Shown: positions 1-6,274 of the stretch, piece after piece
How the letters are laid out: each line of letters opens with the position of its first letter
Position numbering within the stretch: position 1 is the first letter of the stretch
Source of the DNA: a virus
Taxonomy: Duplodnaviria; Heunggongvirae; Uroviricota; Caudoviricetes
Strand: one strand, 5' to 3'
Length of the DNA: 6,274 nt
IMG/VR virus record: IMGVR_UViG_2695420597_000012
The notes under the pieces: model-generated
Seen by the model: the letters and a program-made list of their open reading frames with translations, nothing else
Told to the model about the DNA's origin: nothing
Database searches by the model: none
Position numbers and translations under genes: made by a program

Positions 1-269
1 AGCCTTCAGGGAAAAATATCATCAGATGGCTGCTTAAAAAAAGAACAAATGGTAGTGTCCGCTATTGCCAGTACACCTCAGGATAGCGGTCATGTGATGC
101 CGGTTTCCCGGTAACTCAGCACCGGTATCTGAGTCAACGTTTTCTCTACTGGGTCATTTCCGATACGCCCTGCCTGCTGACAGGCTTTCATCACATCTGA
201 AAATATAGCACCCTGACTGATACTGTAGTACCTAAGGTTCCAGAAACTGTGATGTATCCGGCACAGAAA

Positions 270-288
270 AGCCCCTCCGGAGAGGGCT
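270..288 (-). other. Imperfect GC-rich stem-loop (7 bp with one bulge) followed on the minus strand by TTTCT; possible weak terminator or RNA 3' end
   Basis: agcccctccggagagggct. The unit 2 copy at 1901-1920 has one extra G, giving a perfect 8-bp stem. Confidence 0.3.
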
Positions 289-484
289 GGAGAGTGGCGC
301 TATGTGCCATTGCATGATGCCGGGTGCCTCCCGGTGAATTCAGTACCAGCACCTGAATCCGCGATTATCCCATATACCTACTCGCTGATTGCCCCTCCGC
401 ACAGGGGGATTCACCATGCCAGTTTCTTTTAACAAACTCCCCGCAAAACAGACAACTGTCAACCGTCTGAATTGTGAGACATTT

Positions 485-510
485 AAAAAAAAGGCCCGCA
501 AAAGCGAGCC
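485..510 (-). terminator. Rho-independent terminator directly after the tRNA cluster
   Basis: Minus strand reads ggctcgc-tttt-gcgggcc followed by TTTTTTTT (plus-strand A8 at 485-492, stem 493-499/504-510). It lies 15 nt after the CCA end of tRNA-Arg(UCU). Confidence 0.65.
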
Positions 511-524
511 AGGGAAAATAAGTG

Positions 525-601
525 TGGCGCGTTGTACTGGATTCGAACCAGTGACCGATTGCTTAGAAGGCAATTGCTCTGTCCGGCTGAGCTAACAACG
601 C
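525..601 (-). tRNA. argO: tRNA-Arg, anticodon UCU
   Basis: Hand-folded cloverleaf on the minus strand: acceptor GCGTTGT/ACAACGC, D-stem GCTC/GAGC, anticodon stem ATTGC/GCAAT with loop CTTCTAA, T-arm ACTGG-TTCGAAT-CCAGT, discriminator G, encoded CCA. The symbol is assigned from context (lambdoid ileZ-argN-argO cluster), not from a search. Confidence 0.8.
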
Positions 602-614
602 ATGATGCAGATAA

Positions 615-691
615 TGGACCGCCATCGGGGACTTGAACCCCGCGCAACCAGCTTCGAAGGCTGGCGCTCTTTCCTGATGAGCTAATGGCGG
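615..691 (-). tRNA. argN: tRNA-Arg, anticodon UCG (reads CGA/CGG)
   Basis: Acceptor CCGCCAT/ATGGCGG, D-stem GCTC/GAGC, anticodon stem CCAGC/GCTGG with loop CTTCGAA, T-arm CGGGG-TTCAAGT-CCCCG, encoded CCA. Unusual: position 1 is C, the discriminator is U, and A(-1) could pair with U73. Anticodon and symbol should be confirmed. Confidence 0.65.
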
Positions 692-698
692 TATGTGA

Positions 699-774
699 TG
701 GTGGCCCTTGCTGGATTTGAACCAGCGACCTGGCGATTATGAGTCGCTCGCTCTCACCACTGAGCTAAAGGGCC
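699..774 (-). tRNA. ileZ: tRNA-Ile2-like, anticodon CAU (lysidine type, reads AUA); formally could be Met
   Basis: GGCCCTT-TA-GCTC-AGTGGTGA-GAGC-G-AGCGA-CTCATAA-TCGCC-AGGTC-GCTGG-TTCAAAT-CCAGC-AAGGGCC-A-CCA. This closely resembles my recollection of E. coli ileX (tRNA-Ile2, CAU). Confidence 0.8.
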
Positions 775-814
775 GGGAGCCGCATAATAACGACGCGTAA
801 TTAATTCTTCAATA

Positions 815-1845
815 TCATCCGTTCTGGCTGACTAAATCCTGTACTTCCCGAACCGTCTGCTCAAAACGTTCAGTCTCCAGCTCAACGCCAATTGCACGAC
901 GCCCGAGCGCCAGTGCCGCTTTCACTGTCGAACCCAACCCCATGAAAAAATCTGCAATCAGGTCACCCGGACGACTGCTAGCGCTGATTATCTGCTGCAG
1001 CATTTCTGCCGGTTTTTCGCACGGATGTTTCCCGGGATAGAACTGCACCGGTTTATGCGTCCACACATCGGTATACGGCACCTGCACCGTCACGCCAAAA
1101 TACCGCCGCAGATGTTTATATTCACTCAGCAGCTCCGCATACTGCCGGTTCAGTGAGGTATACGTATCCACCAGCTGGTGGTGGAGCTTTTCCAGTTCAC
1201 CACGCCGATGCTTCTCTTCTGCCACCCGGGCAAACAGCGCCTGTAATTTCAGATAATCGCTTTCATTCGGCAACTGCCACTGACCGGCACTGAACCAGTG
1301 CGACACCATGTTTTTCTTTCCTGTGGCATCTGCAATCTGTTTTGCCGTTATCCCCAGGGCAGCTCGCGCATCACGAAAGTAAGAAATCAGCGGGGCCATC
1401 ACATGCTGTTTCAGTGCACTGCCCTTCGCCGCATACCCGGCATCTTTCGGACGATACGGCCCCTGATAATGTTCCGCGAACAGAATGCGCTCTGTGGCGG
1501 GGAAATACGCCCGCAGGCTTTCCTTGTTGCATCCGTTCCAGCGTCCGGACGGCTTCGCCCAGATAATATGGTTCAGCACACTGAAGCGTTCACGCATCAT
1601 GATTTCGATATCAGATGCCAGGCGATGACCACAGAACAGGTAAAGACTTCCGGCAGGTTTCAGCACCCGCCAGAACTGCGCCAGACACTGGTCCAGCCAC
1701 TTCAGGTAATCATCGTCGCCCTTCCACTGGTTATCCCAGCCCTCAGGCTTCACTTTAAAGTACGGCGGGTCCGTGACTATCAGGTCAACAGAATTTTCGG
1801 GTAACGACCGGATAAATTCCAGGCAGTCGGCGTTGATTAACTCAC
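815..1845 (-). pseudogene. DNA amino-methyltransferase (beta class), copy 1, missing the first ~9 codons and start codon
   Basis: Identical to 3793-4823. Motif IV DPPY and motif I DFFMGLGST are retained. The frame stays open upstream to a TAA at 1871-1873 with no in-frame ATG; the only GTG (1751-1753, used by the ORF track) lies after DPPY and has no Shine-Dalgarno. It could still be annotated as a CDS with a non-canonical start. Confidence 0.55.
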
Positions 1846-1900
1846 TAAAACAACAAAGTCCATAAGGAGTTTACTCACATCTGACAAAATCAATATAAAC

Positions 1901-1920
1901 AGCCCCTCCGGAGAGGGGCT
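1901..1920 (-). other. Perfect 8-bp GC-rich stem-loop (agcccctc-cgga-gaggggct)
   Basis: Direct inspection. Minus-strand downstream sequence is U-rich (gtttatattgatttt) but not a clean U-tract. Confidence 0.3.
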
Positions 1921-2116
1921 GGAGAGTGGCGCTATGTGCCATTGCATGGTGCCGGGTGCCTCCCGGTGAATTCAGTACCAGCACCTGAATCCGCGATTAT
2001 CCCATATACCTACTCGCTGATTGCCCCTCCGCACAGGGGGATTCACCATGCCAGTTTCTTTTAACAAACTCCCCGCAAACCAGACAACAGTCAACCGCCT
2101 GAATTGTGAGACATTT

Positions 2117-2142
2117 AAAAAAAAGGCCCACAAAAGCGAGCC
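2117..2142 (-). terminator. Rho-independent terminator after tRNA cluster 2
   Basis: Minus strand ggctcgc-tttt-gtgggcc + T8. One stem base differs from unit 1, giving a G-U pair, so the stem is kept. Confidence 0.6.
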
Positions 2143-2156
2143 AGGGAAAATAAGTG

Positions 2157-2233
2157 TGGCGCGTTGTACTGGATTCGAACCAGTGACCGATTGCTTAGAA
2201 GGCAATTGCTCTGTCCGGCTGAGCTAACAACGC
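2157..2233 (-). tRNA. argO: tRNA-Arg, anticodon UCU (copy 2)
   Basis: Identical to 525-601. Confidence 0.8.
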
Positions 2234-2246
2234 ATGATGCAGATAA

Positions 2247-2323
2247 TGGACCGCCATCGGGGACTTGAACCCCGCGCAACCAGCTTCGAAGGCTGGCGCT
2301 CTTTCCTGATGAGCTAATGGCGG
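2247..2323 (-). tRNA. argN: tRNA-Arg, anticodon UCG (copy 2)
   Basis: Identical to 615-691. Confidence 0.65.
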
Positions 2324-2330
2324 TATGTGA

Positions 2331-2406
2331 TGGTGGCCCTTGCTGGATTTGAACCAGCGACCTGGCGATTATGAGTCGCTCGCTCTCACCACTGAGCTAA
2401 AGGGCC
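2331..2406 (-). tRNA. ileZ: tRNA-Ile2-like, anticodon CAU (copy 2)
   Basis: Identical to 699-774. Confidence 0.8.
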
Positions 2407-2455
2407 GGGAGCAGAATAATAATGGTGCGTAATTAATTCTGCAATCTCATCCGTT

Positions 2456-3477
2456 TCAAACGATTAAATCCTGAACTTCCCTGACTGTCTGCTCAAAACG
2501 TCCGGTCTCCAGTTCAACGCCAATCGCACGACGCCCGAGCGCCAGTGCCGCTTTTACCGTTGAACCTGAGCCCATAAAAAAATCTGCAACCAGGTCTCCC
2601 GGACGACTGCTTGCGCTGATTATCTGCTGCAGCATTTCTGCCGGTTTTTCGCACGGATGTTTCCCGGGATAGAACTGCACCGGTTTATGTGTCCACACAT
2701 CCGTGTACGGCACCTGCGCCGTCACACCAAAATACCGCCGCAGATGCTTATATTCACTCTGCAGCTCCACATACTGCCGGTTCAGTGACGTATACGTATC
2801 CACCAGCTGGTGGTGGGGCTTTTCCAGTTCACCGCGCTGATGTTTCTCTTCTGCCACCCGGGCAAACAGCGACTGTAATTTCAGATAATCGCTTTCGTTC
2901 GGTAGCTGCCACTGACTGGCACTGAACCAGTGCGACACCATGTTTTTCTTTCCTGTGGCATCTGCAATCTGTTTTGCCGTTATCCCCAGGGCCGCGCGCG
3001 CATCACGAAAGTAAGAAATCAGCGGGGCCATCACATGCTGTTTCAGTGCACTGCCCTTCGCCGCATACCCGGCATCTTTCGGACGATACGGCCCCTGATA
3101 ATGTTCCGCGAACAGAATGCGCTCTGTGGCGGGGAAATACGCCCGCAGGCTTTCCTTGTTGCATCCGTTCCAGCGTCCGGACGGCTTCGCCCAGATAATA
3201 TGGTTCAGCACACTGAAGCGTTCACGCATCATGATTTCGATATCAGATGCCAGGCGATGACCACAGAACAGGTAAAGACTTCCGGCAGGTTTCAGCACCC
3301 GCCAGAACTGCGCCAGACACTGGTCCAGCCACTTCAGGTAATCATCGTCGCCCTTCCACTGGTTATCCCAGCCCTCAGGCTTCACTTTAAAGTACGGCGG
3401 GTCCGTGACTATCAGGTCAACAGAATTTTCGGGTAACGACCGGATAAATTCCAGGCAGTCGGCGTTGATTAACTCAC
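2456..3477 (-). pseudogene. DNA amino-methyltransferase, diverged paralog (copy 2), N-terminally truncated at the junction with tRNA cluster 3
   Basis: About 10 amino-acid differences from copies 1 and 3, a C-terminus 3 codons shorter (LIV* versus LVSQNG*), and many silent nucleotide changes. DPPY is retained; motif I is DFFMGSGST. The frame runs upstream into tRNA-derived sequence with no in-frame ATG. Confidence 0.55.
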
Positions 3478-3502
3478 AAAAGCGAGCCAGGGAAAATAAG
3501 TG

Positions 3503-3579
3503 TGGCGCGTTGTACTGGATTCGAACCAGTGACCGATTGCTTAGAAGGCAATTGCTCTGTCCGGCTGAGCTAACAACGC
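3503..3579 (-). tRNA. argO: tRNA-Arg, anticodon UCU (copy 3)
   Basis: Identical to 525-601. Confidence 0.8.
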
Positions 3580-3592
3580 ATGATGCAGATAA

Positions 3593-3669
3593 TGGACCGC
3601 CATCGGGGACTTGAACCCCGCGCAGCCAGCTTCGAAGGCTGGCGCTCTTTCCTGATGAGCTAATGGCGG
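3593..3669 (-). tRNA. argN: tRNA-Arg, anticodon UCG (copy 3, variable-loop variant)
   Basis: Same as 615-691 except plus-strand A to G at 3625 (variable loop TTGCG to CTGCG in the tRNA). Confidence 0.65.
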
Positions 3670-3676
3670 TATGTGA

Positions 3677-3752
3677 TGGTGGCCCTTGCTGGATTTGAAC
3701 CAGCGACCTGGCGATTATGAGTCGCTCGCTCTCACCACTGAGCTAAAGGGCC
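3677..3752 (-). tRNA. ileZ: tRNA-Ile2-like, anticodon CAU (copy 3)
   Basis: Identical to 699-774. Confidence 0.8.
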
Positions 3753-3792
3753 GGGAGCCGCATAATAACGACGCGTAATTAATTCTTCAATA

Positions 3793-4851
3793 TCATCCGT
3801 TCTGGCTGACTAAATCCTGTACTTCCCGAACCGTCTGCTCAAAACGTTCAGTCTCCAGCTCAACGCCAATTGCACGACGCCCGAGCGCCAGTGCCGCTTT
3901 CACTGTCGAACCCAACCCCATGAAAAAATCTGCAATCAGGTCACCCGGACGACTGCTAGCGCTGATTATCTGCTGCAGCATTTCTGCCGGTTTTTCGCAC
4001 GGATGTTTCCCGGGATAGAACTGCACCGGTTTATGCGTCCACACATCGGTATACGGCACCTGCACCGTCACGCCAAAATACCGCCGCAGATGTTTATATT
4101 CACTCAGCAGCTCCGCATACTGCCGGTTCAGTGAGGTATACGTATCCACCAGCTGGTGGTGGAGCTTTTCCAGTTCACCACGCCGATGCTTCTCTTCTGC
4201 CACCCGGGCAAACAGCGCCTGTAATTTCAGATAATCGCTTTCATTCGGCAACTGCCACTGACCGGCACTGAACCAGTGCGACACCATGTTTTTCTTTCCT
4301 GTGGCATCTGCAATCTGTTTTGCCGTTATCCCCAGGGCAGCTCGCGCATCACGAAAGTAAGAAATCAGCGGGGCCATCACATGCTGTTTCAGTGCACTGC
4401 CCTTCGCCGCATACCCGGCATCTTTCGGACGATACGGCCCCTGATAATGTTCCGCGAACAGAATGCGCTCTGTGGCGGGGAAATACGCCCGCAGGCTTTC
4501 CTTGTTGCATCCGTTCCAGCGTCCGGACGGCTTCGCCCAGATAATATGGTTCAGCACACTGAAGCGTTCACGCATCATGATTTCGATATCAGATGCCAGG
4601 CGATGACCACAGAACAGGTAAAGACTTCCGGCAGGTTTCAGCACCCGCCAGAACTGCGCCAGACACTGGTCCAGCCACTTCAGGTAATCATCGTCGCCCT
4701 TCCACTGGTTATCCCAGCCCTCAGGCTTCACTTTAAAGTACGGCGGGTCCGTGACTATCAGGTCAACAGAATTTTCGGGTAACGACCGGATAAATTCCAG
4801 GCAGTCGGCGTTGATTAACTCACAACTGGATATTTTTACAGTATTAAGCAT
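3793..4851 (-). CDS. DNA N6-adenine or N4-cytosine methyltransferase (beta-class, likely orphan, phage type), full length 352 aa
   Basis: ATG at 4849-4851 with an in-frame TGA two codons upstream. DPPY (motif IV) lies near the N-terminus and FxGxG (DFFMGLGST, motif I) near the C-terminus, the IV-then-I order of beta-class amino-MTases. No adjacent restriction endonuclease ORF. The Shine-Dalgarno is weak. Confidence 0.85.
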   Translation of the reverse strand: MLNTVKISSCELINADCLEFIRSLPENSVDLIVTDPPYFKVKPEGWDNQWKGDDDYLKWLDQCLAQFWRVLKPAGSLYLFCGHRLASDIEIMMRERFSVLNHIIWAKPSGRWNGCNKESLRAYFPATERILFAEHYQGPYRPKDAGYAAKGSALKQHVMAPLISYFRDARAALGITAKQIADATGKKNMVSHWFSAGQWQLPNESDYLKLQALFARVAEEKHRRGELEKLHHQLVDTYTSLNRQYAELLSEYKHLRRYFGVTVQVPYTDVWTHKPVQFYPGKHPCEKPAEMLQQIISASSRPGDLIADFFMGLGSTVKAALALGRRAIGVELETERFEQTVREVQDLVSQNG

Positions 4852-4944
4852 GGATCATTAAGCCTGTCTCTGATAGGCTCATTCTGCTTTTGCGCAAAGC
4901 AGTGGGCCTGAGGTTTGCTTGTGAACCCAACGCATGAGCAGATG

Positions 4945-4973
4945 GCTGGTGGGTGCCCCTAACACCCACCAGC
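4945..4973 (-). other. Perfect 11-bp stem-loop (gctggtgggtg-cccctaa-cacccaccagc), not followed by a U-tract on either strand
   Basis: Direct inspection. It lies between the terminator at 4986-5015 and the methyltransferase start. Confidence 0.5.
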
Positions 4974-4985
4974 CGCCCATTTACC

Positions 4986-5015
4986 ACAAATAAAAAAGCC
5001 TTCACTGCGGAAGGC
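4986..5015 (-). terminator. Rho-independent terminator after the 65-aa ORF
   Basis: Minus strand gccttccgcagtgaaggc (6-bp stem) followed by TTTTTTATTT. The ORF stop codon (5002-5004) lies inside the stem. Confidence 0.55.
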
Positions 5016-5199
5016 GTCTGTAACAACCGAACTGATAGTCTGCCAGACCCGCCATAACCAGCTGGGTCAGTATTAACTGGCAGCGTTCGCGTGAAAGGTA
5101 AGTATTCTGCGCTATCTCCCCGACTGTCGCCGGTTCGGTAACGCTTAATTCATTAAACACCACTCTGGCGGTTTCTGTCATATCCTGCTGTTTTAGCAT
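5002..5199 (-). CDS. Small 65-aa protein, possibly a winged-helix DNA-binding protein (PapI/FaeA-like pattern)
   Basis: ATG at 5197-5199 preceded by AAGGA 6 nt upstream (minus strand ggaaaaggaaaagacATG), with its own terminator. The segment TVGEIAQNTYLSRERCQLILTQLVMAGL resembles small winged-helix regulators. The fold assignment is by eye only. Confidence 0.4.
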   Translation of the reverse strand: MLKQQDMTETARVVFNELSVTEPATVGEIAQNTYLSRERCQLILTQLVMAGLADYQFGCYRRLPQ

Positions 5200-5317
5200 G
5201 TCTTTTCCTTTTCCGGTTAACGTGACACACCAATAACTCTTGTCGAAAAAGCCAGCAAGCTGAAAGACAGGTATTCACCGCCACCAGCGCGTTTACTGTA
5301 CTGACGCGATTTCAGTC

Positions 5318-5341
5318 ATAAAAAACCCGCCAGGCGGCGGG
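5318..5341 (-). terminator. Strong rho-independent terminator ~85 nt downstream of Q (tR'-like)
   Basis: Minus strand cccgcc-gcct-ggcggg (6 GC pairs) followed by TTTTTTAT. Confidence 0.6.
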
Positions 5342-5390
5342 GTGTAAAAAATCTTCTAACGTCAGGCATAAAACGCCCATCGTTAGAGCA

Positions 5391-5418
5391 AATTTACCAC
5401 AGATTCGGGAAAAATCAA
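5391..5418 (-). promoter_or_regulatory. Candidate sigma70 late promoter (PR'-like) just after the Q stop
   Basis: Minus strand TTGATT (5418-5413) - 16 nt - TAAATT (5396-5391). Hexamer match only; the qut site is not identifiable by eye. Confidence 0.25.
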
Positions 5419-5423
5419 CAACA

Positions 5424-6245
5424 CTATCGCGTTACCCTCTTTAACTGCCGCTCCGCCCATGCCTCTTCAATGTCAAACCGAACCACCAACGTATCGTAAA
5501 AGCGTTTCACTGATTTTTTCCACGTATCAAGCGTGATAGCACTCGTCACTTTGCATATGGCATTAAATGCCTCCGTTGATGGCAGCCTTTCACAGCCACG
5601 ACCACCACAACGCTGGCAGTCTCTGATAACAGGCATACCACGTTTTACCGACTCTTCACGATGAATGGCGACACCACGCCCACGGCAATCCTTACAGGCG
5701 GTGGAAACCTCACCCTTTCCGCCACACTCCGGACAGGCAACTTTTACCACCTCCCGATTTTTTTTCCATTCTTCCCAGTAAGACGGATACACACCTTTCG
5801 TACACTTTGCCCATACCGGCGGCTTACCATCCGGATACTGGACCTTGTTTGTAAAAACTACGCTTTCAATAAATTTTTCCCCATAGCAACAAGGGCACTG
5901 CTTTTTACTCGCTGCGCTGCGGGCATAATCCTCAAAAGCGTACGAAGCCATAATGCGCATCACTACCGGTTTTATTTCTGCCGGGAGTTTTCTTAACGCC
6001 GCCACGCGATCACACCGACTGAGTGCATATTCTGTCAGCAATTCTGTTGCCCGCTCTCTGTCATTCATACTAATGCCCATTTTCCCAAGGAACGCAGAAA
6101 ACCCCATCTCAGCCCGATTCTGTGTCATGCCCTGCGCGGCCATCACATCAGTGATACTCAGCGCATCTTTCGACGTTGAGGCCGATGCATCAGTCAGGCC
6201 GGGGGATTTTGGGGAGTAGTATTTCGGTAAATCTTCCAGTTTCAT
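5424..6245 (-). CDS. Antitermination protein Q-like (long Q family with DnaJ-type CxxCxGxG zinc-finger repeats), 273 aa
   Basis: ATG at 6243-6245, stop TAG at 5424-5426. Three CxxCxGxG-type repeats (CPECGGKG, CKDCRGRG, CQRCGGRG) plus CPCC. It sits immediately upstream of a promoter/terminator pair and the methyltransferase-tRNA late region, as in lambdoid prophages. Family assignment is from memory, not a search. Confidence 0.6.
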   Translation of the reverse strand: MKLEDLPKYYSPKSPGLTDASASTSKDALSITDVMAAQGMTQNRAEMGFSAFLGKMGISMNDRERATELLTEYALSRCDRVAALRKLPAEIKPVVMRIMASYAFEDYARSAASKKQCPCCYGEKFIESVVFTNKVQYPDGKPPVWAKCTKGVYPSYWEEWKKNREVVKVACPECGGKGEVSTACKDCRGRGVAIHREESVKRGMPVIRDCQRCGGRGCERLPSTEAFNAICKVTSAITLDTWKKSVKRFYDTLVVRFDIEEAWAERQLKRVTR

Positions 6246-6274
6246 TTTTTGACCTGCCCTTCAAGCATTATGGG

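Follow-up and report, generated by a model that had tools for sequence, protein, structure and literature searches.

The nine tRNA genes in the stretch of DNA analysed here (6,274 bp, referred to as the window) belong to the known ileZ-argN-argO cluster of lambdoid, Shiga-toxin-type prophages. Our overall reading, to which we assign a probability of about 85%, is that each trio represents a codon-supply tRNA operon of a lambdoid prophage, that its middle member, argN, encodes a divergent arginine tRNA, and that the apparent triplication results from the chaining of contigs derived from two or three paralogous loci. The cluster is reported to have been first described for phage 933W by Plunkett et al. 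(1999).

ARAGORN detects the nine genes, all on the minus strand, as three trios of a CAU, an Arg(UCG) and an Arg(UCU) tRNA, at exactly the spans (525-774, 2157-2406 and 3503-3752) given in a preliminary description of this DNA. The tRNA-Ile2 gene ileZ (CAU, lysidine type) lies at 699..774, with an identical second copy at 2331..2406 and a third at 3677..3752; argN, encoding tRNA-Arg(UCG) with an encoded CCA, lies at 615..691, 2247..2323 and 3593..3669; and argO, encoding tRNA-Arg(UCU) with G73, lies at 525..601, 2157..2233 and 3503..3579. Scores with the Rfam tRNA model, whose gathering score is 29 bits, are 72.5 bits for ileZ, 59.0 bits for argN (58.0 bits in unit 3) and 70.1 bits for argO. 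The 280 bases that bear the trio are the same in all three units but for position 3625, the single substitution already reported for unit 3: it replaces U44 of argN by C44 in that unit, so that in the predicted fold G26.U44 becomes G26:C44. The first two argN copies thus carry a U44 allele and the third a C44 allele. All copies in the window fold as canonical cloverleafs with four stems, U8, A14, G18G19, U33, T54-C56 and A58, the sole exception being an A27.C43 mismatch in ileZ that is found family-wide.

Several lines of evidence identify the trio as ileZ-argN-argO, as had been suggested in the preliminary description. Its best phage matches are Stx2-converting phages. In GenBank record AP012536.1 the genes are named ileZ, argN and argO and are flanked by a DNA methylase gene on one side and stx2A on the other; the ARAGORN anticodons are the same as those in the window, the sequences of ileZ and argO are identical to their counterparts there, and that of argN agrees at 72 of 77 positions. 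As in that record, the Ile(CAU), Arg(UCG) and Arg(UCU) genes of the window are adjacent and on the same strand. Both argN alleles of the window are found exactly in IMG/VR loci, and the cluster lies in a lambdoid prophage late region, 3′ of the antiterminator gene Q, in the window and likewise in complete genomes. The Stx-phage clusters (AP012536.1, Stx2a_1447) therefore share with the window the gene order, strand, anticodons and placement 3′ of Q and a DNA methylase gene. They differ in what follows the trio: the window has no stx genes there, and instead an STnc100-type sRNA followed by IS600 or an iraM-like gene. The type of Q differs as well, with 273 aa in the window and 113 aa in AP012536.1.

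The surroundings suggest how the trio would be expressed. A promoter-like site (TTGAAG, 17 nt, TATTAT) is located just 5′ of the first ileZ (784..812, minus strand), and the same site precedes the third (3762-3790, minus strand); a "pS tRNA promoter" 5′ of tRNA-Ile has been mentioned in the literature (PMC2858043). Intrinsic-terminator-like hairpins with T-runs follow argO directly in the first unit (493..510, minus strand) and in the second (2125-2142, minus strand), while that of the third trio is interrupted by the start of the contig in which it lies. The trio would thus form a short unit framed by a promoter-like site and a terminator-like hairpin of its own. Since the cluster is placed 3′ of Q and of a terminator-like site (5326-5341), induction would also bring it under transcription from the late promoter. 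Q itself, encoding a late antiterminator of 273 aa, occupies 5424..6245 on the minus strand (Pfam PF03589, E 5e-51), and between it and the trio is a complete N6/N4 DNA methyltransferase gene (352 aa; 3793..4851, minus strand; Pfam PF01555, E 7.9e-42), whose exact protein is found in many assemblies. Directly 3′ of the tRNA operon terminator lie STnc100-family sRNA genes, one at 259..448 (minus strand; Rfam RF02076, 123.6 bits) and a second at 1891-2080 (minus strand; RF02076, 132.4 bits). STnc100 is connected with the prophage PasD sRNAs in a 2026 preprint, which also mentions tRNA hits in their vicinity. The end of an IS600 element (IS3 family; 1..80) bounds the locus 3′ of STnc100, a flank also seen in loci L218-L222 and in many genomes with the identical methyltransferase protein. 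Between Q and the methyltransferase gene there is also a conserved ORF of 65 aa (5002-5199, minus strand) followed by its own terminator-like hairpin; it has no Pfam match and is annotated as a TrmB-family regulator in one RefSeq phage record.

The CAU tRNA had been proposed to be of the lysidine type that reads AUA, and its sequence argues for this assignment. ileZ is identical at 68 of 76 positions (89%) to K-12 ileX, which is annotated as tRNA-Ile(CAU), and NCBI annotation of ileZ in E. coli genomes is tRNA-Ile. It combines the CAU anticodon and an ileX-like body with the pairs C4:G69 and C5:G68, which are reported to be determinants for TilS (Ikeuchi et al. 2005). K-12 ileX shares the CAU anticodon loop, both of these pairs and A73; ileZ differs from it by a compensated U6:A67 pair. 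The A27.C43 mismatch sits atop the anticodon stem of every ileZ, in the window and in 111 IMG/VR copies, at the position where K-12 ileX has G.U. Setting this mismatch aside, ileZ is intact in 110 of the 111 IMG/VR copies, and 116 copies comprise just 10 distinct sequences.

The middle tRNA is the unusual member of the trio. ARAGORN calls it with anticodon UCG, and the oddities listed for it in the preliminary description are all there: argN has C1:G72, U73 and an A at position −1, and the minimum-energy fold of its precursor is a clean cloverleaf with an acceptor stem of 8 bp that includes A(−1):U73. A set of 120 IMG/VR stretches, fetched by a perfect match to the argN anticodon arm, gave 115 standard-length members of the family for analysis; C1, U73 and TA at −2/−1 are invariant in all 115. 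An eighth acceptor pair recalls bacterial tRNA-His, in which G(−1):C73 also gives an 8-bp stem; the pair is G:C in tRNA-His and A:U in argN, and we treat the likeness as a resemblance, the extra base pair of argN coming from a predicted fold.

Despite these oddities argN, like argO, has the arginyl-tRNA synthetase elements A20, C35 and G36 or U36 (in argN, D-loop AUCAGGAAA and anticodon UCG), and A20 is invariant across 36 distinct argN alleles. The K-12 Arg isoacceptors (argQVYZ, ACG; argX, CCG; argU, UCU; argW, CCU) share with argN and argO the Arg-type D-arm with A20 together with C35 and G36 or U36, and argU also shares the anticodon loop CUUCUAA and G73 with argO. K-12 is not known to have an Arg isoacceptor with a UCG anticodon. 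Overall similarity to the host tRNAs is low, the best identity to any K-12 Arg tRNA being 53/77 for argN and 56/77, to argU, for argO. The K-12 isoacceptors also differ from argN at the acceptor end, having G1:C72 and A73 or G73 where argN has C1:G72 and U73. A purine discriminator, present in seven of seven K-12 Arg genes (A73 or G73) and in argO, is missing from argN in the window and in all 115 IMG/VR copies. U73 departs from the A or G that is normal for E. coli Arg tRNAs, and argN may therefore be charged poorly; this lowers confidence in efficient charging and leaves the family assignment unchanged.

The anticodon arm of argN (CAGCCUUCGAAGCUG) is that of K-12 glyT, encoding tRNA-Gly(UCC), but for nucleotide 36, and the two genes also have U73, C2:G71 and G3:C70 in common. 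Derivation of argN from tRNA-Gly was considered and set aside: overall identity to glyT is 49/77, and the D-arm of argN is of the Arg type.

With UCG as the true anticodon of argN, the cluster would cover AUA, CGA/CGG and AGA/AGG by standard wobble rules: ileZ, once lysidine-modified, would read AUA, argN would read CGA and CGG, and argO, with UCU, would serve AGA and AGG. A doubt raised earlier, that the codons given for the cluster (ATA, AGG and AGA) do not match a UCG anticodon, is thereby removed, since AGA and AGG would fall to argO and CGA and CGG to argN.

We compared codon usage in the annotated late genes of two phages with that of a 50-kb stretch of the K-12 chromosome outside prophages. 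CGG occurs at 13.8 and 15.3 per 1000 codons in the late genes and at 5.2 in K-12 (2.6-2.9-fold, p = 2e-11 and 3e-14), AGA at 4.3 and 4.8 against 1.0 (4.1-4.5-fold), and AGG at 3.9 and 4.4 against 0.6 (6-7-fold). ATA is weakly raised (4.5 and 5.9 against 3.5; 1.3-1.7-fold), and CGA is not significantly different (3.8 and 3.7 against 2.9; 1.3-fold). In stx2AB, ATA reaches 36.8 and AGA 14.7 per 1000. The earlier statement that all three tRNAs decode rare codons thus stands for CGG, AGA and AGG, which are enriched in the late genes; it does not extend to CGA, and outside stx it applies weakly to ATA.

In absolute terms CGG is the commonest trio-decoded codon in the phage late genes, and CGG and CGA together total 154-164 codons there, AGA and AGG 72-79, and ATA 40-51. 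As CGG and CGA make up the largest group decoded by the trio, a UCG tRNA would make sense as their supplier. The enrichment of CGG, AGA and AGG agrees with a codon-supply role, in which the trio would provide decoders for codons poorly served by the host and so help translation of the late genes and, where present, of stx. Codon-compensating tRNAs of other temperate phages (SfI, Sf6 and P22-like; PMC3636060) occupy the same slot 3′ of Q and share the rationale, being matched to codons that the phage uses more often than its host does; the species differ, with Asn and Thr in SfI and Ile, Arg and Arg in the window.

argN is the least well preserved member of the trio. The IMG/VR copies comprise 38 distinct argN sequences among 119 copies (36 among the aligned 77-nt family members), as against 10 among 116 for ileZ, and 67 of 115 argN copies are structurally intact compared with 74 of 102 for argO. 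Stem or T-loop defects are present in 42% of the sampled argN copies and are recurrent: A58G in 27 copies, A6.A67 in 23 and A52.C62 in 21. If anything, the variability of argN is understated, because the sampling fixed its anticodon arm. Among the 36 alleles, 97.8% of pair cells are paired, and a covariation test on these alleles found no compensatory change; conservation of the fold therefore carries little information.

On a rival reading, argN would be a decaying or weakly active passenger, with ileZ and argO the only useful members of the cluster. Its high variability, its recurrent defects, its non-canonical U73 and its lower Rfam score all point in this direction, and "tRNA-pseudo" variants of the cluster have been noted in print (PMC13641118). 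We nevertheless regard this as an unlikely, if serious, alternative. All three argN copies in the window are structurally perfect, with intact stems, G18G19, T54-C56, A58, A20 and an encoded CCA; the codons that argN would read form the largest trio-decoded group in the late genes; and C1, U73 and the base at −1 are fixed while other positions vary.

This last observation invites a more speculative proposal. Since the acceptor end does not vary in 115 copies while the T-arm and stems often decay, the fixed C1:G72, U73 and A(−1) may mark a functional specialisation rather than sequence that was simply inherited. We hold this to be a long shot. Such specialisation could take the form of a mature argN whose acceptor stem has 8 bp, like that of tRNA-His, or of altered recognition by arginyl-tRNA synthetase, RNase P or a tRNA-targeting toxin; either could turn argN into a decoder dedicated to late genes of lambdoid phages, which are rich in CGG.

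The trio might also serve mainly to replace host tRNAs that toxins or defence nucleases directed at tRNA have destroyed (the Arg-specific anticodon nuclease colicin D is an example), with codon supply secondary, given that nuclease-evading tRNAs are known from other phages and that two of the three genes encode Arg tRNAs far in sequence from the host isoacceptors; we consider this very improbable, as the anticodon loops are of the host type (that of argO is identical to that of argU), no nuclease or defence gene was found among the ORFs and Pfam matches of the window, and codon enrichment is already a sufficient reason for the trio.

We turn last to the arrangement of the three units, which the preliminary description took to be a triplicate present locally. 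A self-comparison of the window gives 99.93% identity between units 1 and 3 and 96% between unit 2 and either of them; the differences are restricted to the methyltransferase gene, in its 3′ half. The window is the whole of the 6,274-bp record CXEY01000265.1, from draft assembly GCA_001258915.1, but for two positions: 1844 and 3476, both N in the public record and both A in the window. As these Ns fall at both unit junctions, the window consists of three contigs (a, 1-1843; b, 1845-3475; c, 3477-6274) chained together, rather than of a sequenced tandem array. A single N between contigs is the mark that some scaffolders, in the manner of SSPACE, leave for an overlap that was expected and is missing. 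Showing the Ns as A hid the joins and created false junctions and falsely truncated genes: the methyltransferase fragments at 815..1843 and 2456-3475 (both minus strand; the second a B allele) are cut by contig ends and are not true truncations.

The positions at which the contigs stop can be accounted for. Both left-hand contigs end at ...GATTAACTC, one base short of an A/G difference between paralogues in the methyltransferase gene (A at window position 4822, G in the L228 locus), and a difference at the very next base accounts for the shared end point of the two contigs. In other samples, too, short-read contigs break within 5 bases of this site. A recombination hotspot at ...GATTAACTCAC was considered and rejected, because the 17-mer before the join runs on into normal methyltransferase sequence in 122 of 122 other occurrences. 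The two junctions are absent from 5,426 complete E. coli genomes, GTDB genomes, IMG/VR, JGI metagenomes and a phage collection, and argN never occurred more than once per stretch among the 120 IMG/VR stretches fetched. A look-up of the 344-aa product that spans a junction gave no match, as expected from the X that the corresponding CXEY01000265.1 product has at the join.

A real local amplification of the methyltransferase-tRNA unit by illegitimate recombination, which would triple the tRNA dosage, was our first reading, and we dropped it on the strength of the Ns at both joins and the locus-specific A/G difference at that base. The window as given is contiguous with its units head to tail, and annotated chromosome records do contain rearrangements of this region: the methyltransferase gene is partly duplicated in CB7453, and DLI.5a has an insertion of IS421. 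Against this, no novel junction has been sequenced, both positions being N in the record; both "truncated" genes stop at the same base, 1 nt before a known paralogue difference; the homology across the joins is 2-5 nt (2 nt at J1, at the loop of the iraM 3′ hairpin, and 5 nt, CACAA, at J2, within the loop of the tRNA terminator); no collection that we searched contains the junctions; and in complete genomes each piece belongs to a single-unit locus. A single N could in principle be one uncalled base within a real junction. Tandem triplication is not supported, and we consider it highly implausible compared with an artefact of draft-assembly scaffolding. In E. coli CB7453 (NZ_CM144245.1, L002 5880-6248), the partial 5′ methyltransferase copy is annotated just upstream of the complete gene and would be a separate rearrangement of the region, either real or another effect of assembly.

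The pieces of the chained contigs can be placed in complete genomes, where each belongs to a locus with a single unit. Contig b corresponds at ~100% identity to one such locus (L228) and, together with the Q end of contig c, matches CP151292.1, in which the order is Q, the 65-aa ORF, methyltransferase B, the trio with the U44 argN allele (the allele of the second copy in the window), STnc100 and an iraM-like gene. Contigs a and c correspond at ~100% identity to another single-unit locus (L218-L227): positions 1-1843 and 3477-5330 match it at 100% but for position 647. Many genomes share this second locus. One of them, HE616528.1, which we take to be Shigella sonnei 53G, has the order Q′, the ORF, methyltransferase A, the trio with the C44 argN allele (that of the third copy in the window), STnc100 and IS600.

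Q in the window is a mosaic: from position 5331, the region 5331-6101 carries ~80 substitutions relative to the otherwise 100% identical L218 and matches the L228 Q. Given this switch, contig c represents a recombinant locus or else a chimera that arose via a stretch of ~1 kb common to both loci. The strain has two or three paralogous prophage copies; three loci are possible because the A-type half of the methyltransferase gene is present in two contigs with different argN alleles. To have several copies of the trio in one genome is normal: of the 5,426 complete E. coli genomes, 3,398 contain parts of the module, at a median of 2 places each, and 1,065 have the full Q-methyltransferase-trio module.

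The finding of ileZ-argN-argO is already known and of no new kind: for decades the cluster has figured in annotations of lambdoid prophages, those of Stx phages included, which leaves it small value as a discovery. The replacement of N by A at the joins should put anyone who scans draft assemblies on guard. For the biology of the cluster, the UCG anticodon of argN matches CGG, the commonest trio-decoded codon of the late genes, and the fact that argN is the least conserved member and yet keeps its odd acceptor end fixed could justify a small experiment in tRNA biology.
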